Shown one piece after another: positions 3,412-41,870 of a DNA stretch of 64,000 bases (position 1 is its first letter; every line of letters begins with the position of its first letter). The position numbers and the translations under genes are program-made. The DNA lies in assembly GCA_965217865.1 (NCBI GenBank), contig CBDCJO010000002.1:4192001-4256000 (forward strand), written 5' to 3'. Below the pieces are notes generated by a model. The model was not told the origin of the DNA. It worked only from the letters and a program-made list of their open reading frames with translations, and did not search any database. This DNA is from Candidatus Latescibacterota bacterium (lineage in GTDB: Bacteria > Latescibacterota > UBA2968 > SICM01).

Positions 3412-3748
3412 TGTTCTTTGAAGAAAATTGTAGTAGGAGCCCTATTACGTGGGTACTACCGGCTAACACGCGCTTGCGGCTCGTCCTGCCAGCCTAGTTT
3501 AAATATGGGAGGAGAGACTTCAGAATTGCTGGCGGATAGCACAAACTTAGCTGGTCTGAAAAGGCTTCTGTCTTCACGTCAAGCCTTATATGGACGACCG
3601 TTTCAAGCGGGTCGGCGCTACGAAACTCTGGGTTTGCCAACAACAACAAAGGGTTTGTATCCACCTCAATCTCTTCAGCTTTTACTTCGAGCTCCGTTTC
3701 CCAGGTGGGACTAAGGTTTTCCGCAGCACGAATGAAAAATGAACCTAG

Positions 3749-5274
3749 CAGCCTGTTGAAAAAGTGCGTTTATGCCAAGATGACTGTTGTCTTTCCTTGT
3801 GGTTTGGTCCTATGATATATCAGGTTCAAACTGAGAAGGGAGGACGAGCAAATGGCAATGGGAAAACGAGGACGACAGAGACAGGAAAACCTGTTCATCG
3901 CATCGAACACTTTGGTGAAATCTCCGGGTCATCCGTTCTACGAGAAGCTGAATCAGGTATTGGGGGCGAACGGCTTCGACGAGTTCGTCGAGGGGCTTTG
4001 CCAGCGGTATTACGCTCCTCATATGGGTCGCAAGGGCATTCCGCCCGGGGTTTATTTTCGGATGCTTTTGATTGGGTATTTCGAGGGACTTGATTCGGAA
4101 CGTGGGATCGAATGGCGTGTATCTGACTCGCTGACGTTGCGCCGGTTTTTGGGGTATGCCCTTGACGAACAGACCCCGGATCATTCCAGCCTGTCTCGCA
4201 TCCGGCATCGGCTTCCCTTGGAAGTTCACGAAGCGGTTTTCAAGTGGATCCTGAGGGTCTTGTGCAAAGCGGGTCTGGTGAAGGGGAAGACGTTGGGCGT
4301 GGATGCTACGACACTGGAGGCCAACGCCGCGATGCGCAGCATTGTACGCCGTGACACGGGTGAAGGCTACCAGGCATTCCTTGAGAATCTGGCCAAGGCC
4401 TCGGGCATTGAAACGCCTACCCGCGAGGACTTGTCCAAGATCGATAAGAAGCGACCGAAGAAGGGATCGAACCAGGACTGGGAGCACCCGCACGACCCGG
4501 ATGCCAAGATCGCTAAGATGAAGGACGGTCGCACGCACATGGCGCACAAGGTGGAGCACGCGGTGGATCTGGACACCAATGCCATTGTGGCAGTGGCGTT
4601 GTCGGGAGCAGATGAAGGAGATACCGAGTCGTTGCCCTGGACGCTGCTCGAGGCGCCGCTCAATCTCAAGCAGGTCGCGAAGGACGAAAAAGCTGCCAAA
4701 CGTTTGCACAGACAGCGTATACGGGAGGTGGTTGCGGACAAAGGATATCATAGCAACGATGTATTGACCAGTCTGAAGCAAGGCGGCATCCGGAGTTACA
4801 TTTCAGAACCGGATCGGGGACGCCGCAAGTGGAACGGCCGACGAGATGAGCAGGCCGCGGTATATGCGAATCGACGCCGGATCAAGGGAGATCGCGGCAA
4901 GGCCTTGCGCCGAAGTCGTGCAGAACGGGTGGAAAGAACCATCGCTCACACATATGATACCGGTGGCATGCGCAGGTTGCACTTGAGAGACCGCGGCAAT
5001 ATCCTCAAGCGTTTGCTGATCCACATCGGGGGCTGCAACCTGGCTCTGCTCATGCGCAAAGTGATGGGCGTAGGTACTCCGAAGGCCCTCCAGGACCTGG
5101 CCAAGGCCTTGCAGCGTCTACTGCTCGTCCTACAATCACGTTTGCTGCCCTCGGTCACCTTTTTAACCTCTTATCAGCGTCTCCTGCTCAATCTCCTTAC
5201 CTTGATTTATCTGACCCGCACTCCAGGCGTCTTTTCCGTTTATGTGCGTTGAAAGGTAGTTCTTCAACGGGCTG
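3749..5274 (+). mobile_element. IS1182/IS5-like insertion sequence, copy 1 (1526 bp)
   Basis: Terminal IRs cagcctgttgaa / ttcaacgggctg; CTAG on both sides; near-identical to 24598-26123 and 28922-30447. Confidence 0.92.
3852..5252 (+). CDS. DDE transposase (DUF772-like N-terminus)
   Basis: TPDHSSLSRIRHR, GVDATTLEANA, VVADKGY, RVERTIAH motifs. Confidence 0.92.
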   Translation: MAMGKRGRQRQENLFIASNTLVKSPGHPFYEKLNQVLGANGFDEFVEGLCQRYYAPHMGRKGIPPGVYFRMLLIGYFEGLDSERGIEWRVSDSLTLRRFLGYALDEQTPDHSSLSRIRHRLPLEVHEAVFKWILRVLCKAGLVKGKTLGVDATTLEANAAMRSIVRRDTGEGYQAFLENLAKASGIETPTREDLSKIDKKRPKKGSNQDWEHPHDPDAKIAKMKDGRTHMAHKVEHAVDLDTNAIVAVALSGADEGDTESLPWTLLEAPLNLKQVAKDEKAAKRLHRQRIREVVADKGYHSNDVLTSLKQGGIRSYISEPDRGRRKWNGRRDEQAAVYANRRRIKGDRGKALRRSRAERVERTIAHTYDTGGMRRLHLRDRGNILKRLLIHIGGCNLALLMRKVMGVGTPKALQDLAKALQRLLLVLQSRLLPSVTFLTSYQRLLLNLLTLIYLTRTPGVFSVYVR

Positions 5275-5556
5275 CTAGGGGCTTTATCTCTCCCCAGACA
5301 ATTTTCTGTTCTCTGTGCCATCTTTGGGCCGCATCTGGACGATTCAAATGGTCCAGGATCACCCAAGTCATCGACATCGGGATATTGAATGTTACTCTAC
5401 CTTCTGACGGTGCTAGTTTAAATGTCAAAGCGCATGTGGGATTGGGCAGAGATTGGATGAAATCGACATATGCCTCCTGACTCACTGATCCGACTTTCAC
5501 CTGCTGTATCTATTCTGAGATAACAAGAGAAAAGCAGATAAAGGTCCAAGCAAGAT

Positions 5557-6588
5557 TCAGGCAGCCTTGTGGATGGTCTGGGATGTTCTTTGCCGATTGA
5601 TTTCTATGCGGCGCTGCCGAGCCTCCTCCTTTCGACCTTGTCGGTGGTGAAGAATCTTTTGATGCTGGCCTTTATGCCTCTGAAGAGGCGTGACATACTG
5701 TATTGCCCCGTGATAGCGTTCGGCGTTGTAGCTGTGAATGAAGGAATCAATCAGGCCTTCCAGTTGATGGAATGTGAAGATGTCCTGGAAGCGCAGCCAG
5801 TCGTATTTGAATGTCCGGAAAAAGGCTTCGATCCAGGCGTTGTCCGTGGGTGTTTGATATCGGGCAAACAGCTGCGAGATGCCCAGGTCCTTGAAGAATT
5901 GGGCCATCGATTTGGCCTTCATCTGAGATCCGTGATCTGAGAGGGCTGTCAAGCTTATGGGCCCAGTGTCCAGGTCCAGCAGTCCTTCGTTGGCAAGGGC
6001 TTGATCCCAGGCCTGTTTGACCTGCTCCACGGTCGCGTTGAAGGAGAGCTTCCATCCTACGATCTTCCTGGAATACACGTCGAGAATGGCGGTAAAATAC
6101 AGGAACAAACCGAAAAATGGGATGTAGGTCAGGTCCCAGCTCCAGACCTGATTAGGACCTTCAGGTTTGACCTGGGGCTTGCTCTGCTTGACCGGCGTCC
6201 TCACCTGTTTCCTGCGTGCCAGACGTTCTTTCCTGGCCTGTCGGTAGAAGCTGGAGGCCGAGGCCTGCACTACCCCCTTCTCTGAGGCTACCACCGCCAG
6301 CTGATGGGGAGGCAGATCGGCATAGGTCTCATCCCTTAAGAGGGCCGGGATTTGCTCTTTCTCCTCCCTCAGCAATCCGTGTGGGGCCTCATCAGGGGCG
6401 GGCCCGGGCTTCCCATCCAAAAGCGGGTCCGACACCCCATCCAGCTTCTCTTCTCGATCTCGCCGGCTCCAGGCACAATACCGCTGGAGGGGAAGCTGTA
6501 GGATCTCGCAAGAACGGGTGAGTTTCACCCCTTTCTCCTTGGCCCGATGGACCATTAAGAGGATCTCGCGTTTGACCTCAGCTTGCAC
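5557..6588 (-). CDS. Transposase OrfB (rve integrase core)
   Basis: PNQVWSWDLTYI, ILDVYSRKIVGW, SDHGSQM, DNAWIEAFFRTFK, YNAERYHGAIQY. Confidence 0.9.
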   Translation of the reverse strand: MQAEVKREILLMVHRAKEKGVKLTRSCEILQLPLQRYCAWSRRDREEKLDGVSDPLLDGKPGPAPDEAPHGLLREEKEQIPALLRDETYADLPPHQLAVVASEKGVVQASASSFYRQARKERLARRKQVRTPVKQSKPQVKPEGPNQVWSWDLTYIPFFGLFLYFTAILDVYSRKIVGWKLSFNATVEQVKQAWDQALANEGLLDLDTGPISLTALSDHGSQMKAKSMAQFFKDLGISQLFARYQTPTDNAWIEAFFRTFKYDWLRFQDIFTFHQLEGLIDSFIHSYNAERYHGAIQYVTPLQRHKGQHQKILHHRQGRKEEARQRRIEINRQRTSQTIHKAA

Positions 6589-6611
6589 CCGGTGGCCCTT
6601 GATCGGGCCTG

Positions 6612-6947
6612 TCAGATCCCATTCACACTTTTTTTTAGCAGGGAAAGTTCCACAGATTGCTCAATGATCGTTTGCTCCAGGCGTGCCCGCTCTTTGCGCA
6701 GCTGCTCCACCTCCTCAGCCGATACCATCGGCTTGCGGCTCCGGCGACCCTTGAACTCCTTGAGGGCCCCGGACTTGACCGACTCACGAATACGCTTTAG
6801 ATCCGAGGAATGAATGCCCCATTTCCGCAGCACCTGTGCAATGGGAACATCTCCCCGGCTGGCTTCAAGGAAAATCTCATACTTCTGTTCCGGGGACAAG
6901 CTCCTGCGCTTCTTGACCGGGTCACTGTTTGAGGACAGTTGCTCCAT
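6612..6947 (-). CDS. Transposase OrfA (HTH plus coiled coil)
   Basis: KRRSLSPEQKYEIF...LRKWGI HTH; AAAAAAAAG slippery site (6628-6636, minus strand) would give a -1 shift into orfB. Confidence 0.85.
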   Translation of the reverse strand: MEQLSSNSDPVKKRRSLSPEQKYEIFLEASRGDVPIAQVLRKWGIHSSDLKRIRESVKSGALKEFKGRRSRKPMVSAEEVEQLRKERARLEQTIIEQSVELSLLKKSVNGI

Positions 6948-7826
6948 CTTTACTCCTCCTGTGAGGTCAGGGATATCCCAAAATATGTATCCCTTCTCAA
7001 CCCTACAGGCAACCAGGATCTTGCTTCGACCTTGCCCCCGTTTTTTCGGGCGATCTCAGACAAAAGATACCTGCGTGCTGCTTCCCAATCCATTTGAAAT
7101 GAGCATTCCCATCAAATTCGCCAACTTGACGTGAAGTTTCTCCAAGCCCTTCAAGTGTTTCTGAACTTTTTCGGCAAATTCCTGATTTGCCGAAAGTCGT
7201 TGGTTCTTGCCAGCCATGTTCATCAACTCCTTTCTCAATCGGTTCCTGGAAGTATGGAGCTGATTGTTAACTTTCGTCACGGCGATCTCCAGGAAGGAGG
7301 CTATTTCCTTCTGAGAGAGCTCGGCGATATAGAAGAGAATCACAACAGTAAGTTCAGGCTCTGAAAGTGCTTCGATTGCGGTCAGCACCTCTTCTTTTCG
7401 ATTCCTTTCATCCAGAAGCTCGTCTGGACTTTTTTGGTCCGAGGCCACATCCCGGGCCTCATCTAATTGTTCAGTTGGAACTTGCTTTCCCCGAGTGAGC
7501 CGATCACACTGAGTCAAGATCACTCTGCGAAACCACCCTGGAAATGCGGAAGGCACTTTCAGGTTGCGTAGATTTACGAAGGCACCAATAAACGCTTCCT
7601 GAGCAGCATCTTGTGCCAAATGCCAATCCCTGAGTTGCGAGAAAGCAAAGGCCACTGCCATGTCCTGGAACCGCCGAACAATTGTGTCAAAAGCGTCCAG
7701 ATCGCCATTTTGAGCCCGAACTACGACGGCATCTAGCTCTTCCATCTCCCATCCTATCTTATTAGAAGGCCTTCTACGTATAAAGACCCAACCTGGCGCC
7801 AATAGCTTTATAGAGAACTTTCTATC

Positions 7827-8728
7827 ATCTAAAAAGGCCCATCGCCAGTGCCCTCTTACAGGGAATGTAAGTAATTGTGCTATGGAAACAGAAGAGGTTT
7901 ACGAGCTTGCCGAGAAATTGGGGTGTGCGCAGGCAAGGATCGCTGACCGTTCGCCTTCGCCGGGAACTGTCGACACGTCCGTTCCTGGATTGCGGCTGAC
8001 GATTGTCCCGTCGCATGATACACCATATCCTTCGAGCAATCAAAACCGCGCACAGACTCTTCCTGGCGGAGTCGGCTGGCAGAAAGACTCCGCAGCAAAA
8101 TGCGTCGACCGCTACGTGGACGCGGGCGTGGAACGCTTTTTTGTATGGGTCAACGCGTGTCCTGATTGTGAGCGGATTGTACGTGATCTAAAGAGTGCGG
8201 GATTCAGGAGTTTTACAGGCGCCGGTTATCCAGTCTTGGCGCGCTCAGCCGACCGGATCCCGCAACCCGACACGTCATTCGTCGTCCGGCCCTTCAACCC
8301 TTCCCGGGATCGCAAGCGAATTGGTGACTACCCCGATTCAGAACGCCGTGAGGCCATCGTGCGTTCGCTTAAGCATGGCGACGAGCAGTATTTTATTGCT
8401 TGGGAGGGGAAGACCCCAGTTGCAACCGCTTCGGTAGTCGTGAACGGCCTGCTGGGCTATCTTTATGGCACTTTCACACTGGAGCCATATCGTGGCAGAG
8501 GAGCACAGACGGCCCTGATCGCAGCTCGCGTAAACTACGCAGTTGAACTAGGCTGCAAGTGGGTCGCCTCTGAGACGGTAAGTCGAGCCAAGACCTCCTT
8601 GGGGAATCTTAAGCGTCAGGGATTTCGCGTCATATACAAGAAACGAGTCTTCTCCTGGAAGGAGAAGCTCAAATAACGAGTCCCCTTCGGCCATCAAGGA
8701 CGGGCACTGGTGATGGGGCTTTTTAGAT
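7827..8728. repeat. 27-bp inverted repeats (7827-7853, 8702-8728) bracketing a GNAT gene
   Basis: atctaaaaaggcccatcgccagtgccc vs gggcactggtgatggggctttttagat, 25/27 complementary. Confidence 0.8.
7882..8676 (+). CDS. GNAT-family N-acetyltransferase
   Basis: TLEPYRGRGAQTALIAAR acetyl-CoA motif; SLGNLKRQGF. Confidence 0.8.
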   Translation: METEEVYELAEKLGCAQARIADRSPSPGTVDTSVPGLRLTIVPSHDTPYPSSNQNRAQTLPGGVGWQKDSAAKCVDRYVDAGVERFFVWVNACPDCERIVRDLKSAGFRSFTGAGYPVLARSADRIPQPDTSFVVRPFNPSRDRKRIGDYPDSERREAIVRSLKHGDEQYFIAWEGKTPVATASVVVNGLLGYLYGTFTLEPYRGRGAQTALIAARVNYAVELGCKWVASETVSRAKTSLGNLKRQGFRVIYKKRVFSWKEKLK

Positions 8729-8761
8729 CGACGAAGGAGATTCGTTTAATTCGACGACACG

Positions 8762-10198
8762 TCAATTTACCCTGGGAAAGAGCACGGCTCCCTGACGAAT
8801 CTCCGGTCCAGAAAATCTCTCCTTGATTTCTTGCCCGGTTCCGGGTAGAAATGGGGCCAGCCCCTCTCCCACCGATCTAATCGAATCCACCCACCTGGTC
8901 AGGTGCCCTCGAAGGGCGGAAATTCTACCTTCCTTAAGGAGGTCCCACGGTCTGACACTTTCTATTTGCCGGTTCAGATCTGTCACACCCCCTTGTAGGA
9001 TTTCCAAGCATTTGTGATACAGAAATCGATCCGCATAATACGCAACATCAGCGGGCGGATTTGAACCCCTGCCTGGCGTCACTTTGATTCTCGCCCTTTC
9101 ACATAGAGTTTCGAGGCGTCGGACGAGGTTGCCAATACCATTCGCCAGCTCGGACGAGTATACCTCCCGGAACCTGGTGAGCGAAAAGTCCCCATCCGCT
9201 CCGCTGGGGATCGCCCTCAGAAGGAAATAGCGGAGGGGGTCCGGTCCGTACTGGTCGATGATCGGGAAGGGATCGACCGCGTTGTGGCTGGATTTGCTGA
9301 TCTTTTCGCCGTCGACCGTAAGGAAACCGTGCACCACCAACTTATCGGGAAGAGGCAGCCCTGCGGACAGCAGCATCGCCGGCCAGTAGATTGCGTGGAA
9401 GCGAAGGATGTCCTTGCCGATCACGTGTATCTTGCAGGATTGGTCGTTCCAGAAACGCTCGAAGTCTTCGTCGTTTCGGCCAAAGCCGATTCCGGTAAGG
9501 TAGTTTGTCAAAGCATCAAACCAGACATAGAGCACCTGGGATGGGTCCCCCGGAACAGGGACTCCCCAGCCGCCGGACCTCTCGCAAGGCCTGGAAATGC
9601 TGAAATCCACCAGTCCCCGGCGAACGAACTCCAGGGCTTCGTTCTCTCTTGCTTGAGGAAATATCCGGAGCCGCCCGGATGATATCAGGTCTTCGAGTTC
9701 TCGCTGGTAGGCAGAGAGTCGGAAGAAGTAGTTCGTCTCTTCCACAACCTCAGGTTTGGTGGAGTGGATCGGACAACGGCCTTCATCCAGCTCCTCTTCT
9801 TCATAGAAGCCTTCGCAGCCTGCGCAATAGAGCCCCTTATAACGGTGGGGAAAAATGTCACCTTTTCGACAAAGTTCCCAGAATTTCGAAGCACCCAGAT
9901 GATGCGCCGTCAAGGATGTTCGGATGAAGTTGCCGTTTGAAATAAGCAACTCTGCGGACAACCTCTTGAACACGTCCGCGTTTCGATCACAGAGCGCTTG
10001 AGGCGTTAGGCCTGCTTGTTCAGCGGACCGAACGTTCTTCAGGGCATTCTCGTCCGTTCCGGTGAGCAAGAAGGTTTCATTCCCTCTTAGACTTTCCACT
10101 CTGGTAATCACGTCAGCCAGAACGAGTTCAAACGCAAATCCGACGTGGGGGTCCGCGTTTACGTAGGGAATGGATGTTGAGACAAAGGTGGTATTCAT
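8762..10198 (-). CDS. metG: Methionyl-tRNA synthetase, short form
   Basis: STSIPYVNADPHVGF (HIGH variant), LTGTDEN, YVWFDALTNY, GKDILRFHAIYWPAML, KISKS. Confidence 0.93.
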   Translation of the reverse strand: MNTTFVSTSIPYVNADPHVGFAFELVLADVITRVESLRGNETFLLTGTDENALKNVRSAEQAGLTPQALCDRNADVFKRLSAELLISNGNFIRTSLTAHHLGASKFWELCRKGDIFPHRYKGLYCAGCEGFYEEEELDEGRCPIHSTKPEVVEETNYFFRLSAYQRELEDLISSGRLRIFPQARENEALEFVRRGLVDFSISRPCERSGGWGVPVPGDPSQVLYVWFDALTNYLTGIGFGRNDEDFERFWNDQSCKIHVIGKDILRFHAIYWPAMLLSAGLPLPDKLVVHGFLTVDGEKISKSSHNAVDPFPIIDQYGPDPLRYFLLRAIPSGADGDFSLTRFREVYSSELANGIGNLVRRLETLCERARIKVTPGRGSNPPADVAYYADRFLYHKCLEILQGGVTDLNRQIESVRPWDLLKEGRISALRGHLTRWVDSIRSVGEGLAPFLPGTGQEIKERFSGPEIRQGAVLFPRVN

Positions 10199-10325
10199 GG
10201 CACGTCCTTTCCTTATCGAATGCTTTATGAGAGGTGACCGATTTTGACGTGCGCATCCGTTCCAATCCGCCGTTGCTACCTGCCGAAAAGCACTTCATTT
10301 TGCCTCCAGTTTGCCCAAAGAGGGC

Positions 10326-10362
10326 AAAAGAAAAAGCCCGCTGCCAAATCCTGACAGCGGGC
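10326..10362 (-). terminator. Intrinsic terminator/attenuator hairpin upstream of metG
   Basis: Minus strand GCCCGCTG-tcaggatttgg-CAGCGGGC followed by TTTTTCTTTT. Confidence 0.8.
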
Positions 10363-10387
10363 CCTTAGATCGATAGATTGAATCAGT

Positions 10388-10528
10388 TTATGTTCTATAG
10401 TCCAGAGGGTATTCCACTGCCGCGGAAACTCTATCTCGCATAGACATACCCATGCCATTCCGGACAGTGGAGGTGCTTTGCCAATCTTGACAAACTGATT
10501 GAAAACCAAACGTGGCCTTGATTGCCAT
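10388..10528 (-). CDS. Putative 46-aa leader peptide with an MGMSM cluster
   Basis: AAGGAG RBS; MAIKATFGFQSVCQDWQSTSTVRNGMGMSMRDRVSAAVEYPLDYRT*; ends 26 nt before the terminator. Confidence 0.6.
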   Translation of the reverse strand: MAIKATFGFQSVCQDWQSTSTVRNGMGMSMRDRVSAAVEYPLDYRT

Positions 10529-10757
10529 GAAATTCTCCTTTTGCAGCATAAATAAATCTACCTTAATACCGATCCTCTGTCAAGTGGGGAGGTTTTGCTG
10601 CAACGCCTAACAAGCTTTTGCGGCTCGGCGTATCCACACCCCTCGACGACTTCTCCCTCTCACTGATCCCAGCTGGCCACGAAGTCGTCGATGTCGAAAT
10701 CCGCTGGCATTTCGTAAAAGAAGTATTTCATCGGTTAACTCACAAGAGGCAAATCTT

Positions 10758-11696
10758 ATGAAGGTTGATGAGATCAAGCGAATAGCCGTTGTCGGTGCCG
10801 GCTTGATGGGCCACGGGATCGCCCAGGAATTTTCCCTCGCCGGTTATGAAGTCCACCTGCAATCTCGTACCGAAGAGAGTCTGCAAAAAGCCATCTTGGA
10901 TATTCAGAAAAACCTCGAGTTCCTAACGGGGCTTGGACAGGTGACCCCTGAGCAGGCCGAGCCCGTTCCGGCCAGGATCCATACCACTACGGAGTTCGAA
11001 CAGGCGGTCGAAGACGCCGATGTGGTCATCGAGTCCGTCTTCGAGGATCTTGCGCTCAAGCAAAAGATCTTTCAGGACCTTGACAAAGTGTGCCCGGAAC
11101 GCACGATCCTGGCGAGCAACACCTCCAGCTTGATGCCGAGTGCGTTCGCGTCCGGCACCCGCAGGCCTGAAAAGGTGCTCGTGGCACACTACGCCAACCC
11201 GCCTTATTTAATCCCGGTCGTCGAAATCGTCCCGAGTGGGGAGACATCCGACGAAACCGTGACGACCATATCTGATCTCCTCACAAAGATGGGAAAGCGC
11301 CCCGTCATCGTACAAAAAGAAGTCCCGGGTTTCGTCCTCAATCGCCTTCAGGGAGCGCTTCTTCGGGAGGCGCTTTGGCTTGTAGAAAACGGCATTGCGA
11401 GTCCACAGGATGTGGATATCGCCATAAAGAACGGCATCGGACGACGATGGGCGGCGGCCGGAATCTTCGAGGTGTTTGAGATCGCAGGATGGGATTTATT
11501 GATGGCGATGGCTTCAGGCCTTCTCCCCCATCTTGCATCTTCGCCGGAAGTACCTTTGGTGCTGAAAGAGAAAGTCGAACGCGGCGAACTCGGGGTAAAG
11601 ACCGGGAAGGGGTTCTATGAGTGGACTCCGGAGTCGGCCGAGGCCCTGAAACAAAGAATTGCGGAAGCCCTGGTCAAAATAGAGCGGTGGTCCTGA
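10758..11696 (+). CDS. 3-hydroxyacyl-CoA dehydrogenase family protein
   Basis: VVGAGLMGHGIA, ILASNTSS, HYANPPY, PGFVLNRLQ, GVKTGKGFYEW. Confidence 0.92.
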   Translation: MKVDEIKRIAVVGAGLMGHGIAQEFSLAGYEVHLQSRTEESLQKAILDIQKNLEFLTGLGQVTPEQAEPVPARIHTTTEFEQAVEDADVVIESVFEDLALKQKIFQDLDKVCPERTILASNTSSLMPSAFASGTRRPEKVLVAHYANPPYLIPVVEIVPSGETSDETVTTISDLLTKMGKRPVIVQKEVPGFVLNRLQGALLREALWLVENGIASPQDVDIAIKNGIGRRWAAAGIFEVFEIAGWDLLMAMASGLLPHLASSPEVPLVLKEKVERGELGVKTGKGFYEWTPESAEALKQRIAEALVKIERWS

Positions 11697-11812
11697 ACAT
11701 CCTAGTTTCGGTCGGTTCGCAAAACCTGAGAACGTCAAGGCAAGTTCTGCTTTGATCACGAAAAGCCGGCACTGTCCTGGCCCCGCAAGTGAAGGCTCTT
11801 GGAGGATTGTTG

Positions 11813-12993: not shown

Positions 12994-13080
12994 GGCTATC
13001 TTCGCATACTCACAACAAGAGGCCGTCCGTCTAAGCTGTACATACAACTCCACCTGAAACCTTTTACAGGAGAACAGGTC

Positions 13081-13629: not shown

Positions 13630-13658
13630 TCCCTAATTCGAAGGAGTTGAGGTTCAGT

Positions 13659-16844: not shown

Positions 16845-16964
16845 GCATAACACGACCGTCTGCGGCTCCGGCGCATTCGCCTTAGCCCAACCCGGCTTCC
16901 TCCTCCGTTGCGTTGCAGCTTCGGAGGATAAGCCACAGGTTCGCAGCCCGTGAACGCGTTATTC
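16845..16964 (+). other. attC-like site (plus strand)
   Basis: GCATAAC...ctgcgg...cgcagc...GTTATTC imperfect hairpin. Confidence 0.6.
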
Positions 16965-18100: not shown

Positions 18101-18135
18101 CTTTCGGAACAATTCACTGGTGGTTCAAATTAGCT

Positions 18136-28920: not shown

Positions 28921-28921
28921 T

Positions 28922-30447: not shown

Positions 30448-30461
30448 ATAGCCCAACATCG

Positions 30462-32672: not shown

Positions 32673-33017
32673 GGTTCATCTCCAATTTCGGACCTGCAAT
32701 TGAGCAGCGACAACGCAGTATATCCCGATCTATTCCGGAGCTATACTAAACAGGTCTCTATCCCTTCCATTTCTTCTAACGTCCGCGCACTTGCGAACTG
32801 CCGGCCTGTCCTCCGGAGCTGCGGCCTGTCCTTCCGAAGCTCCGAAGGAGCGAAGGAGGAAGGAGCGAAGGAGGGAGGAAAGTTGGGTCGAGGGCCGTCA
32901 GGCCTGAGCCGCAAGTGCAGTTGTTATGGGAAGTTCCAGCCGGCTTCTTGACTATCTTCCCAAAAAGCATCAACTTCAGAATCGGATATTGGGTCTTAAT
33001 TTCAGAAGAGCGATCCT

Positions 33018-33668
33018 ATGGAAGATCTACAATCACTCATTAGACAGACGCGAGAAGGCAATCTCCGCGCATTTGGCTATGTAGTCCGAAGATTTCACGA
33101 CATGGCGGTCGGATACGCCTTCTCCATCCTGAACGATTTTCATTTGGCGGAAGATGTCGCTCAAGAAGCCTTTGTGCAGGCTTTCTCCAGGCTCAGTCAG
33201 CTTACGGCCCGCAGGAAACTGAAGGACATCATCACCAGCAAATTCGATGAGTTGTTGCCAGAAACTTCGCCAACACACACCTATCAAGGAGCCCAGCATA
33301 TGTTCAAAACGATGTTTCCCGAGCTGCACGTATCCGACGTCGAAAAGGCGGCGACCTTTTTCTCAGAGGCGCTTGGTTTCAAAAGAGGATTTACATACGA
33401 GGAGGAGGGGAATCTGGACTTCGTTGTAATGTCCCACGGAGACAAGACCATATACCTCCACCACATGCTTCCTGATGTTGAGTCCGAGCAACCACGTCGG
33501 ATGAGACTCTACTTCCAGCCGTACGACATTGATCGCCTTCACACAGAGCTGAAGTCAAAGGGGTTCCAGGTTTCGCAGCTTGAAGATGAGAGCTACGGGG
33601 CAAGGACGTTCACTCTGAAAGGACCTGACCAGTACGAGATTTGGTTCCAGCAATGGACATCGAACTAG
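33018..33668 (+). CDS. Internally deleted ECF sigma factor fused to a VOC/glyoxalase domain (inverted within its cassette)
   Basis: VRRFHDMAVGYAFSILNDFHLAEDVAQEAF jumps to TARRKLK; then PELHVSDVEKAATFFSEALGF...YGARTFTLKGPD. Confidence 0.75.
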   Translation: MEDLQSLIRQTREGNLRAFGYVVRRFHDMAVGYAFSILNDFHLAEDVAQEAFVQAFSRLSQLTARRKLKDIITSKFDELLPETSPTHTYQGAQHMFKTMFPELHVSDVEKAATFFSEALGFKRGFTYEEEGNLDFVVMSHGDKTIYLHHMLPDVESEQPRRMRLYFQPYDIDRLHTELKSKGFQVSQLEDESYGARTFTLKGPDQYEIWFQQWTSN

Positions 33669-33792
33669 AGTTACCTTGGGCTGGAATTTCCCATAACGTC
33701 TCGCGCATGTCCGCAGCGAGGATTTGGGAGGAAGCCGGTGGTTTTCTCCGGCTGTAGCCGGACATGCGCTGTTATATGAAGTTCGACCCCAT

Positions 33793-34539
33793 TCAATTAT
33801 ACTTTGTAGATATTTCATTGTACGATAAATTTCCCCCATAGATGTCAAGGGCAGAACCAACCGTAAAATTGATTTTGCTATTTCCATGCTTCTCTACTAA
33901 TGATATATCATTATATGATTTTATTCCTCCTGCATATGTTGTAGTAATAGGAGAAAATTCACCAAGCATTTTTATCAAATCTACTTCAACGCCTGACATT
34001 TTCCCTTCAACATCAACAGCATGCACTAAAAATTCATCACAATATTCTGATAAAAACAATAAGCAATCTTTATCAATTTTACAGTTTGTGAACTTGCTCC
34101 ACTTGTCGGTCATAATATAATAATCTGTCTCCTTTTTCCTTGAACTCAGATCTAATACAATATTATCTTTTTCAACAACCTTTCGGAGTTTTTTAAGATT
34201 ATTTAGATCAATTTCACCATTATTAAACACAAATGATGTTACAATTATATGTGATGCTCCTTTTGAAATATAATAGTCAGCATTTTCGTCATTAATCCCA
34301 CCGCCAACTTGAAGCCCTTTTGGGAACACTTCAAGGGCCTTTATTACTTGAGATTCATTTCCAGGGCCTAGCATCATAATATGACCGCCATATAGATTGC
34401 TGTTTTTAAACATTGTAGCATAATAGGTTGCTGGTTGAGTAGAAATAAAATTCTGTTTAATTTCATTGTCTTTTAATGTACTGCCAATAATCTGTTTTAC
34501 TAATCCATTATGAAGGTCAATACATGACCTGAATTTCAT
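33793..34539 (-). CDS. hisA: ProFAR isomerase, His6-like HisA type (cassette gene)
   Basis: KFRSCIDLHNGLVKQIIGST, LQVGGGIN, EFLVHAVDVEG, TYAGG, TVGSALDIYGG; very AT-rich. Confidence 0.88.
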   Translation of the reverse strand: MKFRSCIDLHNGLVKQIIGSTLKDNEIKQNFISTQPATYYATMFKNSNLYGGHIMMLGPGNESQVIKALEVFPKGLQVGGGINDENADYYISKGASHIIVTSFVFNNGEIDLNNLKKLRKVVEKDNIVLDLSSRKKETDYYIMTDKWSKFTNCKIDKDCLLFLSEYCDEFLVHAVDVEGKMSGVEVDLIKMLGEFSPITTTYAGGIKSYNDISLVEKHGNSKINFTVGSALDIYGGNLSYNEISTKYN

Positions 34540-34747
34540 TTATCATTACCTATTAGAAATATTATACAATGGGGTCGAATTTCATATCACGTTTCGGCTG
34601 TCCTGAACCGCGAAGCGGTTGGGTCGGAAGGAGCGAAGCGACTGGAGCCAGGAACAGCCTGATATTAATATAAAGGCCCTCGTTGTCAGGAGAGGTTATA
34701 ATTGAGATCCGGATATCTCAATCACCTTTCTCCCACAGGAGGGCCTT

Positions 34748-35791
34748 ATGCAATACGCAAGGATCGACTCGAACTATTTCTGTGGCATCGATCTCCACGC
34801 CAGAACGATGTTTGTCTGCATCATGGACAAGATGGGAGAGATTGTGTTCCAGCGCAACCTGAAAAACGACTTCAAGCTCCTGCTGCAGGTGCTGGAAACT
34901 CACCTCGGTAGCATCGCCGTCGGGGTGGAGTCAACCTTCAACTGGTACTGGCTGGCTGACGGGTGTCACAAGGCCGGGATTCCATTCTACCTGGGACACG
35001 CCCTGTATATGAAGGCGATCCATGGGGGCAAGAAAAAGAACGACCGTCTCGATTCCAGAATGCTGGCTGAGCTGATGCGCTGCAACCTGTTCCCGATGGC
35101 CTATGCCTATCCGCAAGAGATGCGGGCAACCCGGGACCTGCTCCGGCGAAGACACCGGTTTGTGGCCTTACGGGCTGAGTGTTACACCCACATCCAGAAC
35201 ACCTTCTCTCAGCAAGCTATCCTGGATCCTCTCAGCGACCAGGTCAAAAAGAAGAGCAACAGGAGAAAGCTGTGCGAACGTCTGGCCGACCCAGATCTGA
35301 GTATGTCTGTGGACTGCGATCTGGACCTGGTTGACTCCCTGGACAAAATGATCTACAAAGTCGAGAAGCAAGTCTTGGCACAGGCCAAACATCACGATCG
35401 CAATGTCCTGTCTATCCTGATGACGGTTCCCGGACTTGGGGAGATGTTGGCCATGACCATCCTGTATGAAATCCACACGATTGAACGGTTCAAATCCGCT
35501 TCAGCCTTCTCCTCCTACAGCCGGCTGATCAAAGTCGAGAGAGAGTCCGCTGGAAAGAAGACAAAGGACGGGAATAACAAAATCGGCAACCCACACCTAA
35601 AGTGGGCCTTCTCAGAAATCATCCTCGTCGCCCAGCGATGGTCAGAACCGATCAATAGATACTACGAGAAGCTCAAAAGCAAACAAGGTCCGGGAAAAGC
35701 CAAGAGCGTCATCGCTCACAAATTCGGCGTGGCCGCCTACCAAATGCTCAAAAACGGCCAGGCATTCGACGAGAAACGGTTTGTAGCATAA
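34748..35791 (+). CDS. IS110 DEDD recombinase/transposase
   Basis: GIDLH, VGVES, KNDRLDS, TVPGLG, ESAGK, KIGNPHLKWA. Confidence 0.93.
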   Translation: MQYARIDSNYFCGIDLHARTMFVCIMDKMGEIVFQRNLKNDFKLLLQVLETHLGSIAVGVESTFNWYWLADGCHKAGIPFYLGHALYMKAIHGGKKKNDRLDSRMLAELMRCNLFPMAYAYPQEMRATRDLLRRRHRFVALRAECYTHIQNTFSQQAILDPLSDQVKKKSNRRKLCERLADPDLSMSVDCDLDLVDSLDKMIYKVEKQVLAQAKHHDRNVLSILMTVPGLGEMLAMTILYEIHTIERFKSASAFSSYSRLIKVERESAGKKTKDGNNKIGNPHLKWAFSEIILVAQRWSEPINRYYEKLKSKQGPGKAKSVIAHKFGVAAYQMLKNGQAFDEKRFVA

Positions 35792-36270
35792 TGGGTGGGG
35801 CGGTTAACCCGGCGCCTAACTGGCAGGGCAACGTCCGGACAATAGCCCAGCTCATCGGCTTGATTGGGAAGCCGCCTTCACCCCTTATTTAGAACATAGA
35901 TGAGCGGATCTGAGACAGTCAGTCCGTCTGCCCCCGCGATGAACCCGAACCTAACTGGCGTTCCCCCTCATAAAAGGGGAGAACAGCCATCCTTCTTGAT
36001 TGGGACTCAAGGGGTACCGATTATTTTCTGGAGGGAGAGGACAATGCCTCTCCCAGGGCGCTCCACAGTATACCGTGAGAGGCGCTTGATTCCCGATACG
36101 TGTTTGGTGCAGATGGCTCACATCTAGCCCGGTTTGTGAAAATCAAGTCAGACCGACGACTGACAAAGATCCGAACATCGCCAAACCTCTTCGGATCGGC
36201 TCATTGCACGCCCCGAACGTTAGGGTCGCAAAAAAACGGTGAAAATCGTGATGGAGGAGTCTTTTTTTCT
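35792..36270 (+). ncRNA. Putative bridge/seek RNA region of the IS1111-type element
   Basis: ~480-nt non-coding right end with two copies of an aacccg..cctaactggc...cttgattggga framework; boundaries uncertain. Confidence 0.55.
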
Positions 36271-36366
36271 TGACCCGGGGCCTTTAATATGTGTTATGTG
36301 TCTGTGGCAGTTTTGCGATGAGTCAAAACAATAAAGGGGACACCATCAACTTCCCTGGTTTTTCTT

Positions 36367-36888
36367 TTAATCTATCACAATTCTCAGTAGGGTTTCAAAA
36401 CGCTTCTCCATATAGTGGACCTCAGGTGCATCTTCTCTTGGCCCCAAATCCTTCCATCCATACTTCAAATAAAATCTCGCCGCAACAGCATTCGACGGAC
36501 TGACATTAAGTCGGGCTCTCTTACATCCAAGCTGTTTAAAAAATAATCCTACATGCTTGTCGAGCAAATAACCCATACCTTTCTCTCGATATTCCGGAAT
36601 CAGATAATAGAGGTTGACATATCCTACAGCGGGGTCAATCCTCCATCTGCCCATCTCGATCTGACCAATGATCTTATCATCCTTCCAGACGTGGATACAG
36701 CTATTAGGAATCTCACCCATGCGCTGTCTGAGCCAGTTAATATATCTTTCGGCTCCTTTTCCATCGACCTCATGGAATCTCTCTGCCGATCCGAAACTGC
36801 AGATGTAAGAATCCTCTCTGAACTTGATGCACAAATCGGCATGTCGCTCCAAATCAATAGGAATGAAATCCAGATGGTCAACCTTCAT
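36367..36888 (-). CDS. GNAT acetyltransferase (cassette gene)
   Basis: LIPEYREKGMG, NAVAARFYLKYGW. Confidence 0.85.
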   Translation of the reverse strand: MKVDHLDFIPIDLERHADLCIKFREDSYICSFGSAERFHEVDGKGAERYINWLRQRMGEIPNSCIHVWKDDKIIGQIEMGRWRIDPAVGYVNLYYLIPEYREKGMGYLLDKHVGLFFKQLGCKRARLNVSPSNAVAARFYLKYGWKDLGPREDAPEVHYMEKRFETLLRIVID

Positions 36889-37256
36889 ACTTTTGTTCCT
36901 ACGACTATAAAATGGTCTTATTCACTGTCGAACAGGCATATCTGAATATCAAGATCGAATTGTGGCAAACCGGGCAAGGATGATGGGAGAACTGATTTTG
37001 TCCCCCTTGTGTTTTTCAGATCGACCCCAAAACTGCCATTGCACATAACGTCTGAACACTCCCGAAGGGGCCGTGTATCGGAAAAGGAAGCAGTGTTTTT
37101 TGCCATCAGCCAATGAATCAGTCACGGCCCTTTTGACCGAGCGCAGCGAGTCGGGAGTGGGTTGTTAAATGCTGGTGGCGCGCCCCCTTCACGGCGAAGC
37201 CCTAAACGGGGCGGAAATACAGCGCACCCCTTCACCTTGTTTTCCCTACTTCGATC

Positions 37257-37853
37257 CTAATCCAACTTCTCCCTCGCAATCTCCACAATCCGGCCTCGCA
37301 CCACCTGTACGTCCTGTTCTCGAACTGTCCCCAGAGATCCTATCTCATCTCGAATCAGGCCTGCCACACGCTCCGTCACATTCTGGAAAATTCGATCCTG
37401 CACGGCCTGGCTAGCCCCATTCAGCGCAACTGCCAAATCTCTCGTATTCAGCTCACGTAGCATCCCTTGTATTTCCCGGTCGCTCAAATTTATAAGATCC
37501 TCAAACGTGTTCACCTCACGTATCCGTTCCGATAACCGACTTACCTGCTCCATCTCTTCGGCCGAAAGCGACCAGTCGAACACATCCATATTCTCTTTCA
37601 GATGCCCCTCTGAACTCGCCTTGGGAATCACCACCATCCCCTGCTGCACCAACCACCGCAGTCCCACCTGCCCGGGGGTCTTACTGTGGCACTGGCCAAT
37701 ATTGATCAGAGCAGGCTCTCCCAGAATGCGACCCCTTCCTAACGGCGTATGTGCTGTCACCACCACGTTGTGTTCTCGACACCATCGCAACACGTCCCGC
37801 TTCTCCTCCCCGGGATGGTACCTGATCTGGTTCACGCTAATGGGTACCTCGCT
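37257..37853 (-). pseudogene. 5'-truncated aldo/keto reductase fused to a FliG C-terminal domain
   Basis: NQIRYHP, AHTPLGRG, IPKASSEGHLKENMDVFDWSLS, then TFEDLINLSDREIQGMLRELNTRDLAVALNGAS...IFQNVTERVA. Confidence 0.82.
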
Positions 37854-38075
37854 AACGTCCGAAGCTGCGCTTTGCCCACCATAGCTTCCATGGCCACCGA
37901 AGCTTCCCTGGCCACCGAAGCGTCAGCGAAGGTGGCAGAGTAGGTGGGCAGCAGCGGAGGAGGAAGTGGGTTGGTGCGGAGCGTAGCGGAGCCGTGAGCC
38001 ACATGTTAAATGCAGTGCAGGTTTAGCATGCACATTACCTGACGGGGCAAATCTTTGACTCTGCGTTGAAGAAAA

Positions 38076-39401
38076 CTACCCTTCCTTCGGTTTCTTGAAC
38101 CACCACGTGGCTTCAAGGTGTTTTGGAGGAGGGGGGTGGGGCAGCGGGATCCAGGCCCCGACATCCACATCAGGACCCGTAGTCCCAGAGGGCCGGATAT
38201 CATCAGACGGACTCCCGTCTCCGGAATACTTGATATATAGCTTTAGAAATTTCGTCTTTTGTGTAACAACATCAGTTCCAAGGAAATTGCGGATCGGGAA
38301 GAAAAGCTTTACCCGTGCCTCACGTGGGGAATATGTATAAGCTCCTGTTGATTCCTCAAGGGAATCGGTACCGGGAGATAAGCGCCACCCTTTCCTCCAG
38401 ACGATCTCTCCTGTATGGCGGACCTGCATTGGTTCGTGAGGCCGAACGATACCCATCTCCTCTACTTCAATGGGCTCATAGGCAGTTCCCTCATTGTCCT
38501 CCAAATAAATGGTCCAGTTCTTCAACGAAAGAAAAGAGGGCGCGTAAGGTGTTCTCACCTTAAGGCGGATGAAAATGGCGTTCTCAATCCGGTTTTTCGA
38601 CCAGTAAGCCTCACGGATCGTAGATAAGTTCCGACCCTTTGGATTGTAGTATTTGCAGATATGGTGGACTTCTGCCTCGACCAGGTCGGGCGACATCAGG
38701 GTGGCGGCCACGGTGAGGGGTGAACGAACAAGACGATTCTCCAGCCCTGGCCCATGCTTTCCACGGGTCGGCTGCCATAAATCGTCTGTAATGTGCGACT
38801 CACCTCGCAGGGGATCGTTTAAGGGCGCGTACGTTCTAACTATCCAAGTCTTCAGGAGGTCGGAGTAGGACTTCGACTGATCCTGCTTCTGGGGCTTGGT
38901 AAAACTGACATAGTAAACATCCGTTTGATTTGGTTCGTGCAGCCCAGCCCAGGTGTCAATGTAACAGAAAGGCATCTTTTGGTTAAACCGAAGGTCCAAC
39001 AGGCGATCCTTGCGTTTCGTCATATCATCCAGACGGTCCTGCTGCCGGCTGTCGAGACTTCCTCTGAAGTTGTTCAAGACTCTGTCGACTTCTGCGATTG
39101 CTTTCTTCTTTCTATCCCTTACCTCGTTGAGGTCTCCACTCATCCCTTTCCAGATAGCTGCTTCAGATGTCATCCTCGCATAGTCCCACTCGAAGGCCTT
39201 CAAAGTATTTCGGATCTGGGAAATCTTCCACCTTGCTGAATCCTGTTGCGCTGGGGATAGCTTTAGTTTCTTTGTGAGCTTTCGAAGGTCCAACAGATCT
39301 TCCGGTCCTCGACCATGACCATAGGCAACCAAAGCCGGAAAAATGATACAGAGCGCCACAAAGAACCGAGGCCAATGTGTGGTAGTACTTTTTCTCACCA
39401 T
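38076..39401 (-). CDS. Secreted hypothetical protein, 441 aa (cassette gene)
   Basis: Signal peptide; helical N-region (LKLSPAQQ...LDSRQQ); no recognised family. Confidence 0.75.
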   Translation of the reverse strand: MVRKSTTTHWPRFFVALCIIFPALVAYGHGRGPEDLLDLRKLTKKLKLSPAQQDSARWKISQIRNTLKAFEWDYARMTSEAAIWKGMSGDLNEVRDRKKKAIAEVDRVLNNFRGSLDSRQQDRLDDMTKRKDRLLDLRFNQKMPFCYIDTWAGLHEPNQTDVYYVSFTKPQKQDQSKSYSDLLKTWIVRTYAPLNDPLRGESHITDDLWQPTRGKHGPGLENRLVRSPLTVAATLMSPDLVEAEVHHICKYYNPKGRNLSTIREAYWSKNRIENAIFIRLKVRTPYAPSFLSLKNWTIYLEDNEGTAYEPIEVEEMGIVRPHEPMQVRHTGEIVWRKGWRLSPGTDSLEESTGAYTYSPREARVKLFFPIRNFLGTDVVTQKTKFLKLYIKYSGDGSPSDDIRPSGTTGPDVDVGAWIPLPHPPPPKHLEATWWFKKPKEG

Positions 39402-39858
39402 TCCCCCCTACCCTTGCTGTAGGTTGAATACCTGCATTGCATTTAATGTTCAGGGTTGCAGAAGTGGCCGTGCATTGGTAAAGATAAAAAAGTTTTACAG
39501 GAAAGTATAAAAGAAAAACCTACGGCCATTTTTGGGGTGGGTGGAAGGTGAGGTGGGGAACTGCAACCCGGTGTTAGACGCCGCGGGCTCCGCTTTTCAC
39601 ATCCTCATGATTTATTTAAGAGAGGCCTCAGTTCCCTTCGCGTTTCCACGGCAGTGCGCTTTGCTCAACGGCTTTTCGGACATTACCGAGCCAAATTGGC
39701 CATAACCAATCCGTCTCGCACCCGAGGGGCAGATACTTCTTGTCAATAATGTGCTTCTGCTCGCGGTCAACTTTGGCTTGGACATAGCGTTCAACCTGAG
39801 AGAAGGGAATCCACGCATAGGGTCCACTCTCAAAGTAGGATCTGTCATTTTTAGGTGT

Positions 39859-40059
39859 TCAAAGGCGACGGTGAGGAGCGCAGAACAGCATTTCGACACC
39901 ATTCCACATCCTCTCGCGGTCGGAGGTCAATCGGACATCAAGCTCGACGGCATCCACGCCAAGGTCAATTGCACGCTGAAAAGCTTGAATAGTATTCTCA
40001 GGTGCTTCACCAGGAGCACCTCTATGAGCTACGATCTCGAATTGATCCACTTTCTCCAA
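39859..40059 (-). pseudogene. Glycerophosphodiester phosphodiesterase N-terminal fragment
   Basis: IVAHRGA...PENTIQAF...[10 protein letters not shown], then similarity is lost. Confidence 0.75.
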
Positions 40060-40335
40060 GGCCGCTGTTTAATAACCGTTTATGAATTGCTCCCCCCCTT
40101 GCCCACTCTCGAATTACCACAAACCCTCATTTCGCCTAACGATTTCGCCGTGCCCGAACCGGCGGCTTGTCCACCGAAGCGGCGTCTTACCCACCGTAGC
40201 TTCCCTGGCCACCGAAGCGTCAGCGAAGGTGGGCAGCCGCGAAGGTGGAAGCCGGTTGGGCGAAGGGCGTAAGCCCGTAGCCGGGCACGGACGTGTTATG
40301 CGGCGTTAGCTTCCTCTCGTTCATCACAAGGGAAA

Positions 40336-40917
40336 TTAAGAATCCAACATTTTCCTCAAGTGCTGCAATACCAGTGTATCTCGTTTAGTCCAAAGCGGCG
40401 GATTCGCGGTCGGCGAATTAAGTAGAGCCGAGTTTTTCTGGATCGCATCATCGATTGTTACCCAGGTAGGAGTAAACTCCAGATCCTCTTCGTATTGATC
40501 CAAGGTTTGCTCTCCGAGCGTCGGCTCTACGTCACAGAGATAATAGTGGGATCTCATCTTAAAAACGTCGTAGTCTGCATCAGAAGCCGGACCGTAGGTT
40601 ACCATCTTTCCATAAGCACCACGAACAGCCGTAACCTTTGTCCCACACTCTTCACGTATTTCTCGAACAAGTGCCTCTTCGTGCGTCTCGCCAGACTCAA
40701 TGCCACCACCTGGAAACTTGAAATCGCCATTCTTGGGAGAGAATACCATCAGCAACTCACATTCACGAAGAATAATGCCCCGTACCGCATCTCTCAGACA
40801 TGTCCGACCACTGAGATCTAGGTCTTCCGGCCGAATCAGTTTTCCAATAACTTGCATATCGTATAACTCTTTAGTGATGTGATCGCGAGTTGATGCTACC
40901 AGAGGTTGATGAGTCAA
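40336..40917 (-). CDS. NUDIX hydrolase (cassette gene)
   Basis: KFPGGGIESGETHEEALVREIREECG; true start probably the internal MQVIGK. Confidence 0.85.
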   Translation of the reverse strand: MTHQPLVASTRDHITKELYDMQVIGKLIRPEDLDLSGRTCLRDAVRGIILRECELLMVFSPKNGDFKFPGGGIESGETHEEALVREIREECGTKVTAVRGAYGKMVTYGPASDADYDVFKMRSHYYLCDVEPTLGEQTLDQYEEDLEFTPTWVTIDDAIQKNSALLNSPTANPPLWTKRDTLVLQHLRKMLDS

Positions 40918-41219
40918 CTAAGTCTCTAACTAATGCCGCATAACGTTCGTGGATCTCTAAACCCGCCCGTGTTTTTTTGGCGGGTTGCCGAAGGCCGAAC
41001 GACCGAAGGGAGTGAGCAGAGATCCATTGTTATAGGATGTGCCAGCCCGGGGTGGGGTAGGGGCTTGCCAAGAACGGAAAGCTTCGGAGAATCTTCAAGA
41101 CGCAGATAGCATATCTCCTGGAGCATATGTCTCCACAGGGCCTCCTTCGCTACATCCAGCCCCCCTCATGTCCTGGTTAAACAGCGATCTCAGCCTGGGC
41201 TCTCCGAGGTTGCCTACAG

Positions 41220-41870
41220 TCAATATAGGACATTGAGCTTCTGCTCAACAATATGGGGGTTGTCACCGCTTTGAATCGACTTGATGCCCTCAAGGACTTT
41301 CCGATATTTCACCTTCTGTTCATGTAGCAAAGACTCCATCCAGGTGCTAAGAATTGCCTGAACCAGTTCTGGTTCCGTTCCATCCACGGCTAGCCGAACA
41401 GCCGTAGTCAAAAACTTATCGCCCGGGCTTTGCACCATATTTTCCAACGTCATGATGCCTTCTCTCCGAGCTATCTCGGCAAACCCGACAAACAGCCTGT
41501 TAATCTCATCGGAACCGAGCTCAGAGAGCGGACGCTTGATGGTGGTTCTTATCGCCCGTTTCGTAGCGAGGTATTTCTTCCCAAGCTTGGGCTTTTTAAG
41601 TTGCCTTACAGTTTTCACGATGGACAACTGCACATCCTCCACATCGCGCATTGGAATCGGATCGGAAATTTCCATTTCCTCTCTGACCATCGTCCGCACA
41701 CGCTTCGACATATTGCCAAATATTCGACCTTTCAGCTCCTTTGTCGCACCTTTCAGTGCAACAGCCAGGTCTTTCGTGTCCACCTCCCGTAGCATCAGCT
41801 GGATCTCCCGATCCGTTAGTTTCGAGAGATCGTCAAAGGTGATTTCATGGGTTGCTTGCGTCGCTGACAT
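41220..41870 (-). CDS. FliG C-terminal domain fused to the cytoplasmic part of MotA, no TM helices (cassette gene)
   Basis: AAGGAGG RBS; TFDDLSKLTDREIQLMLREVDTKDLAVALKGA...NMSKRVRTMVREEM (FliG_C); AEIARREGIMTLE...FLTTAVRLAVDGTEPE and LEGIKSIQSGDNPHIVEQKL (MotA). Confidence 0.85.
   Translation of the reverse strand: MSATQATHEITFDDLSKLTDREIQLMLREVDTKDLAVALKGATKELKGRIFGNMSKRVRTMVREEMEISDPIPMRDVEDVQLSIVKTVRQLKKPKLGKKYLATKRAIRTTIKRPLSELGSDEINRLFVGFAEIARREGIMTLENMVQSPGDKFLTTAVRLAVDGTEPELVQAILSTWMESLLHEQKVKYRKVLEGIKSIQSGDNPHIVEQKLNVLY

Follow-up and report, generated by a model that had tools for sequence, protein, structure and literature searches.

Within a 64,000-nucleotide stretch of a Candidatus Latescibacterota genome (GenBank GCA_965217865.1, contig CBDCJO010000002.1, positions 4,192,001 to 4,256,000; hereafter the window), three genes carry domains of the flagellar motor, and one of them joins the torque domain of the rotor protein FliG to a membrane-free cytoplasmic domain of the stator protein MotA. 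A sequence-only reading had assigned FliM, FliG_C and FliG_C-MotA domains to these genes and had proposed that proteins outside the flagellum reuse motor domains as modules. All of the domain calls held in Pfam and NCBIfam profile searches, and the reuse was borne out far more widely than first thought. Canonical flagellar genes had been read as absent from the window, and none was found among the 66 open reading frames (ORFs) scanned with Pfam; the genome itself is flagellated. The genes in question, two of which involve an aldo/keto reductase and an extracytoplasmic function (ECF) sigma factor, respectively, are the following.

41220 to 41870, minus strand: intact gene of 216 amino acids (aa), FliG_C plus MotA cytoplasmic domain (Pfam/NCBIfam)
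37257 to 37856, minus strand: 5'-truncated aldo/keto reductase (last ~105 residues) plus FliG_C (Pfam, DkgB model)
7070 to 7745, minus strand: first piece of the ECF-FliM pseudogene, with ECF sigma regions 2 and 4 and the opening part of the FliM middle domain
5275 to 5504, minus strand: second piece of the ECF-FliM pseudogene, FliM middle domain, GGXG motif absent
3494 to 3748, minus strand: third piece of the ECF-FliM pseudogene, last part of the FliM middle domain, without the C-terminal FliN-binding domain

Below, G denotes the FliG_C torque domain and A the membrane-free MotA cytoplasmic domain, and G-A and G-A-A are their fusions.

The FliG_C-MotA protein

The intact protein consists of FliG_C (residues 10-92; Pfam E 8e-29), a basic linker and a membrane-free MotA cytoplasmic domain (residues ~112-216; NF005997, E 1.5e-14), in which the loop between helices 2 and 3 is joined directly to the C-terminal tail. 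The alignment of residues 10-93 to Salmonella FliG 234-317 has no net gap and puts R57 at R281, E64 at D288, E65 at D289 and K40 at K264. The MotA part aligns to MotA ~72-130 and 203-242, leaving a 75-residue gap over helices 3-4; helices 1-2 are absent as well, so that all four membrane helices are gone, and the highest 19-residue hydropathy is 0.63. At the columns of R135 and E143, all 15 canonical MotA sequences carry R and E; we take these columns, from a familiar motif, to be R90 and E98 in E. coli numbering. In the motor, R90 and E98 pair with D289 and R281, respectively, according to an excerpt of PMC7564593.

The FliG_C part falls far under the TIGR00207 cut-off (78 vs 227 bits), and Pfam gave no match to FliG_N or FliG_M in either FliG_C protein of the window. 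R57, E65 and R135 are invariant in 29 close relatives; the window protein is short of ~17 residues that its relatives possess. Its AlphaFold2 model has a pLDDT of 85.4 and a pTM of 0.65, and the modelled FliG_C superposes on 1lkv with an rmsd of 0.8 A over 82 columns. The protein was compared with six relatives; for the two pairs whose synonymous substitution (dS) was not saturated, the ratio of nonsynonymous to synonymous rates (dN/dS) is 0.09 for the A part and 0.15 for the G part; judged by sequence comparison, the G-A family is demonstrably under purifying selection.

Spread and architectures of the family

Searches with the window protein recovered 31 other clusters at 43-99% identity, 30 of which cover at least 91% of the query. 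The genome surveys comprised 168 genomes of the phylum and 132 of the class, window genome included. Profile matches occur in 73 of the phylum genomes, mostly via ordinary FliG, and the full-span module is present, among the 150 matches listed, in at least 16 besides the window genome. Within the class, 78 genomes are without any G or A match and 54 have one. All 45 FlhA-positive genomes fall within these 54, five of the nine FlhA-negative matchers were examined and have flagellin matches (fragmentary in genome G158), and each of the 15 genomes with a listed full-span module has FlhA (13) or flagellins (2). G158, which is 96% complete and gave no FlhA match, has only fragmentary flagellin, FliG and A-domain matches; its flagellar system may be in decay, or its assembly may be poor.

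At E 1e-30, 362 of 1.84 billion representatives matched in a profile search. Among the best 150 of these, G-A-A types are the commonest (66) and single-A types number ~40; the remainder includes A repeats followed by G (one named Treponema sp.) and membrane MotA fused to FliG_C. The module, the clean deletion of helices 3-4 and the charges persist in more than 100 clusters at 50% identity. At its N-terminus the module is joined to an unnamed domain of 80 residues, to ECF sigma factors, to leucine-rich repeats (LRR) or to tetratricopeptide repeats (TPRs), the ECF fusions making up 12 of 38 proteins picked for unexplained extensions and occurring also at loci L037 and L064. In databases the family is concealed by such names as "FliG C-terminal domain-containing protein" and "flagellar motor component MotA". 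A GTDB scan with the A1 query gave mostly ordinary MotA among the matches listed.

The window genome holds a second, divergent G-A gene (L013:1444-2573; G000 C2:2803570-2804699) that is 32% identical to the first, overlaps a small ECF gene by 4 bases and has lost the D288/D289 and R90 charges. Scanning metagenomes with its product gave 33 loci, all matching the MotA part only.

In a tree built on 114 columns, most Latescibacterota-type A domains stand beside Latescibacterota MotA, on one side of a 100/99 branch, and the Treponema-type A domains lie elsewhere with moderate support. This placement, from a MotA sample biased towards the query and reduced from 72 to 35 rows, makes two origins likely.

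The unnamed N-terminal domain of ~80 residues (L233-L240; P0021) is present in at least 10 copies in the genome, carried on ankyrin, TPR or G-A proteins. It has no Pfam match, and an atlas search returned only hypothetical clusters, under 0.9.

Torque charges and the 1:2 ratio

In the stator, FliG_C is gripped between two adjacent MotA cytoplasmic domains, as described in part of PMC11302681 (PDB 8UCS). The G-A-A layout has one FliG_C to two MotA domains, the ratio of this pincer grip, and chains of 8UCS are both sequence and fold matches of the module. In the AlphaFold2 prediction a G-A-A member forms one unit (pLDDT 94.7, pTM 0.89), and fold searches retrieved FliG at Z 15-17 and, for the G-A-A model, stator A subunits at Z 12-14, well above unrelated chains.

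The torque charges are divided between the two A copies. The R90 column is R in 60 of 67 second copies, in 41 of 67 first copies (R or K in 45) and in 66 of 71 single copies, and the E98 column is acidic in 17 of 67, 51 of 67 and 54 of 71, respectively; R90 is thus held mostly by copy 2 and E98 mostly by copy 1, and single copies keep both. Although second copies are the most diverged class, their R90 column ranks third of 112 columns, and the two copies keep different surface motifs. On the G side, the D289 column is acidic in 123 of 138 A-linked domains, compared with nine of 16 hand-picked G domains without A. A covariation analysis by mutual information with average product correction (MI-APC), G against A columns in 56 sequences, gave no interpretable pairs.

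The two inactivated fusions

The interval 3494-7745 had been taken for a single ECF sigma-FliM gene. The domains stand, but the interval is not one ORF: its three pieces are parted by two insertion sequences (IS), which from their Pfam matches we take to be IS3-like and IS1182-like.

5505 to 7069, minus strand: IS3-like insertion sequence, rve and helix-turn-helix (HTH) transposase ORFs, 5-bp target duplication
3749 to 5274, plus strand: IS1182-like insertion sequence, DUF772 and DDE, 4-bp target duplication

In piece 1, Pfam recognises regions 2 and 4 of an ECF sigma factor, and FliM pieces match TIGR01397 at E 3.6e-6 and 1.3e-3, one of them exceeding the Pfam FliM (PF02154) cut-off. An intact 383-aa ECF-FliM gene in genome G040 has 80-86% DNA identity across all three pieces (84% nucleotide identity for piece 1), with dN/dS of 0.18-0.33, and G040 contains a second ECF-FliM paralogue. 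Intact forms are rare: a protein search found them in four clusters (P0121-P0124) among 884 candidates, each with sigma regions 2 and 4 and PF02154 in one ORF. In ECF-FliM the ECF part takes the place of the CheY-binding N-terminus and the protein stops after the FliM middle domain. The GGXG motif, through which FliM binds the FliG middle domain (a portion of PMC6700473), is absent at the aligned place in the window FliM piece and in the four intact homologues. A low-depth contig in sequencing run X3 spans the IS1182-like site unbroken; 46 of 237 letters differ on one side, and the contig is probably a relative's DNA.

The same ECF clade in this genome ends in many different tails, namely the catalytic core of phenylalanyl-tRNA synthetase (PheRS; two genes), a nuclease, TPRs, FliG_C and glyoxalase, and FliM is therefore one of many swapped tails. 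The ECF genes with a PheRS-alpha catalytic-core tail are L223, L224 and L241 (G000 C2:189510-190814, 679221-680561 and 557100-558038), two full and one 5'-truncated; further tails in the clade are a bifunctional-nuclease domain or TPRs. At 33018-33668 of the window, ECF sigma region 2 is joined straight to a glyoxalase domain, region 4 being missing (Pfam).

The second fusion places FliG_C (37257-37835; Pfam E 5e-23) behind a reductase that covers just positions 151-258 of 267 in the DkgB model. The first ~150 residues are gone, and the complete barrel with its N-terminal catalytic residues, lacking here, is found in the homologue P0126. The reading frame starts at the GTT crossover of an upstream attC-like site, at 37856, which suggests recombination into the reductase gene at attC, and the gene is likely a pseudogene. 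Both domains occur together in only two other clusters of 71 matches, one being the full-length 347-aa P0126, and no full-span match was found in the 131 other class genomes at E 1e-25. Motor domains were captured separately in ECF-FliM and in reductase-FliG_C, and both genes have been inactivated here. The possibility that the fusions are one-off decayed chimeras, which had been put forward as the finding that would refute the sequence-only reading, fails for FliG_C-MotA, and intact homologues of the other two exist.

A proposed self-closing grip and its alternatives

The architecture, the family and its purifying selection, the kept charges, the majority form of one G to two A and the fusions to sigma factors are established. 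From sequence and models, the module may be an unpowered grip that closes on itself and acts as a switch or a sink, sensing or buffering motor parts; this reading is preferred tentatively, at somewhat short of an even chance. Soluble G and A would rebuild the hold of the stator on the rotor without a membrane. In G-A-A the torque helix would sit between the two A domains as in 8UCS, where copy 1 would offer its E98 to R281 and copy 2 its R90 to D289. Single-A proteins, such as that of the window, would complete the grip as dimers, so that each A would keep both charges. Free FliG, MotA or motor-binding proteins could compete for one half and open the grip, an event that in the ECF fusions would gate transcription; stand-alone forms would be sinks. 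It is conceivable, at a distinctly lower level of confidence, that the torque interface was cut from the motor at least twice and became a soluble single-chain switch, in which two specialised MotA domains clamp one FliG torque domain, and that when fused or coupled to ECF sigma factors the supply or state of motor parts controls transcription directly.

Several observations weigh against such a grip. R297 is lost in the window protein and K264 is variable, and R281, kept in 14 of 16 G domains without A, is non-discriminating. The pTM of 0.89 does not establish the grip geometry of 8UCS in the model, and the alignments behind the predictions were 56 rows deep for G-A-A and 29 for G-A. Second copies form mostly one weakly supported tree group and are largely one lineage; the division of charges may therefore go back to a single event or a few, and the Fisher values of 2e-4 and 2e-9 obtained for it overstate the case. 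The single-A set, for its part, includes 32 close relatives of the query. Annotation of 55 neighbouring ORFs at a strict cut-off revealed no shared context. Lastly, the unrelated tails of the same ECF clade (PheRS core, nuclease, TPR) fit generic domain capture.

An unlikely alternative, though the best placed of the rivals, is a brake or clutch on the cell's own motor, in which the G half binds stators and the A half binds FliG of the C-ring, jamming or uncoupling the machine. Charges are kept on both torque surfaces, the module is seen within the class only in genomes with flagellar genes, its parts most closely resemble the FliG (up to 73% identity) and MotA of the lineage itself, two loci (L056, L067) adjoin fliG/fliM, and YcgR and EpsE are described, in partial accounts, as brakes or clutches acting on these surfaces. 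Yet a protein that contains both partners in a 1:2 ratio, and that folds into a single unit, should satisfy itself, the division of charges between the A copies fits an internal site, and a brake has no need of fusion to sigma factors, LRR or TPR.

Slightly less credible again is a captured bait or scaffold with no tie to the state of the motor, whereby ECF sigma factors and the unnamed N-terminal domain would acquire pieces of core machines and through them detect foreign or stress proteins attacking such machines. The varied company kept by both domains speaks for it, the ECF clade ending in PheRS cores (2), nuclease, TPR, FliG_C, FliM or glyoxalase and the unnamed domain in ankyrin or TPR tails, as do the loss of the FliG-binding motif from the FliM tail and the location of two window genes in attC cassettes among GNAT and NUDIX genes. 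Against it, the module is missing from the 78 genomes of the class without FliG, an effector or sigma domain is wanting in many members, and the strict annotation of 55 neighbouring ORFs showed no defence-like neighbourhood.

Neutral domain shuffling, in genomes rich in IS elements and integron-like recombinases, is improbable. Two of the three window genes are broken, there is a large IS expansion and architectures vary widely, but the dN/dS values of the ECF-FliM pieces (0.18-0.33) and of G-A (0.09-0.15), the persistence of module, helix 3-4 deletion and charges in the more than 100 clusters and a similar design that seems to have arisen separately in Treponema-type proteins all oppose it; as neutral debris, G-A is largely refuted and the idea was rejected for it. 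An account in terms of orphan domains was likewise rejected, the genome being flagellated.

Least probable is the toolkit of the sequence-only reading, in which the three window proteins would dock through motor surfaces and link sigma factor, enzyme and adaptor: the reductase's FliG_C does retain R281 and D289, and three genes within 38 kb arise in only 0.6% of random placements of eight genes (23% once the cassette array is counted once), but the network fails because two of the genes are broken, because in relatives the genes are unlinked (ECF-FliM and FliG_C-MotA are ~1.6 Mb apart in G040) or absent, with neither co-occurrence nor clustering and, as noted, no full-span reductase fusion in the rest of the class, and because the FliM-FliG surfaces are missing, the FliM part having no GGXG and none of the three proteins a FliG middle domain.

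Relation to known systems

The C-terminal torque domain is common to FliG (PF01706, TIGR00207; ~335 aa) and the window protein, which keeps R281, D288, D289 and K264; unlike FliG, G-A is without the N-terminal or middle domain, which bind FliF and FliM, and therefore cannot build a C-ring, and its R297 is lost. With MotA/PomA (NF005997 and relatives) the protein has in common the cytoplasmic loop and C-terminal tail, the four membrane helices being absent. ECF sigma factors with regulatory C-terminal extensions are known, as in ECF41, ECF42 and similar groups. These likewise have regions 2 and 4 followed by a fused domain, whereas the tails in the window lineage are the FliM middle domain, FliG_C, G-A, G-A-A and other core-machine pieces. 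MotI is a soluble protein acting on FliG or MotA, as are, as far as the partial accounts go, YcgR and EpsE; all three have unrelated folds and are not copies of motor surfaces.

A further likeness is to the laboratory MotA-FliG_C fusion in the structure MotA5B2-FliG_C (PDB 8UCS; part of PMC11302681), which has the same two domains, at the 1:2 ratio of the commonest natural form, and the same charges. In contrast to 8UCS, the natural module is soluble, without membrane helices, MotB or ion path, places G before A, and often has an ECF or other N-terminal domain. Contact between rotor and stator is transient, and only that engineered fusion allowed it to be solved. The main text of a 2025 survey of MotAB diversity (PMC12505986), in its available part, contains none of the words "fusion", "fused" and "truncated". 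No description of the FliG_C-MotA architecture was found in searches confined to open-access papers and judged from their listings. Each component is known by itself; no counterpart was found for the soluble 1:2 module or for its use as a regulatory tail. New here are the split of the torque charges between two MotA copies and the class-wide survey. A soluble natural chain of ~360 residues with both faces at 1:2 would make torque-interface chemistry easy to crystallise and mutate, and if the self-closing grip is real it would offer a model, natural and free of membrane, for how rotor and stator touch; the sigma-factor fusions would then open a new path by which motor parts control genes.

Several related fusions were met in the survey. 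P0288, P0298, P0313, P0342 and L263:498-1613 are natural membrane MotA-FliG_C fusions of ~370-570 aa, in the same order as the laboratory construct of 8UCS, in which helices 3-4 look altered. In L005:1504-2994, L266, L271 and L280 a membrane helix comes after one or two FliG_C domains, and some have a long C-terminal domain. Full-length FliG stands behind a formylglycine-enzyme (FGE-sulfatase) domain in two genomes (L066:1447-3690, L067:3066-5222), and FliM behind one or two receiver-like domains, a label given by eye, as well as single-chain FliM-FliG fusions, is found at L119, L120, L121, L123, L125, L130 and L133, and L124 and L126. Many class genomes have several divergent FliG and FliM paralogues.

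Cassettes and genome setting

Two of the three genes had been placed in cassettes bounded by attC sites. This stood for FliG_C-MotA, a single ORF between two strong attC hairpins, as in an integron gene cassette; the sites at the reductase are weaker, folding only ~1 standard deviation (SD) better than shuffles.

41942 to 42020, minus strand: attC upstream of the FliG_C-MotA cassette, core boxes paired, hairpin -26.1 vs -13.9 +/- 2.2 in shuffles
40938 to 41035, minus strand: attC closing the FliG_C-MotA cassette, core boxes paired, -18.4 vs -12.0 +/- 2.3
40134 to 40301, minus strand: attC closing the neighbouring NUDIX cassette, -44.1 vs -35.3 +/- 3.1
37850 to 38011, minus strand: attC-like site with GTT crossover inside the reductase frame, core boxes, hairpin only ~1 SD better than shuffles
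37043 to 37170, minus strand: weak attC-like site downstream of reductase-FliG_C, core boxes, fold ~1 SD better than shuffles
43050 to 43344, strand unassigned: candidate attI-like entry region, 89% identical to DNA beside a frameshifted tyrosine recombinase

The attC-like site at 37850-38011 has repeats in common with other attC sites. The region 43050-43344 is likely the entry (attI-like) region of the array; its copy elsewhere in the genome adjoins a frameshifted integron-like tyrosine recombinase, and in a search for the cognate IntI no recombinase in the genome reached the TIGR02249 cut-off. An attC scan downstream of 32 accessory genes found two sites, compared with three for 19 fliG controls, and gave no sign that cassettes are the usual home of accessory genes, the scan being insensitive enough to miss the window's weak site. 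Further attC-like hairpins outside the main array (window 16845-16964, 32774-32929, 33691-33777) sit among GNAT, NUDIX, APH, ankyrin and IS-split nucleotidyltransferase genes.

The window genome measures 6.43 Mb in two contigs, and the nearest named relatives of the window proteins are labelled Candidatus Latescibacterota. Its flagellar genes form an ordinary set (five flagellins, FlhA, two FliM and motA/motB), with FliG in three near-identical copies plus a divergent one; the frames of flhA and motA are shifted as read, possibly through errors of assembly. By a count made by eye, the IS expansion amounts genome-wide to ~90 full copies of the IS1182-like element, three of them inside the window, and ~34 of the IS3-like element. 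Between the cassettes, at 38076-39401 of the window, lies a 441-aa ORF with a probable signal peptide and without a Pfam match. Intergenic repeat families of 50-200 bp, in up to nine copies, occupy window positions 52958-53357, 56208-57193 and 60510-61257.

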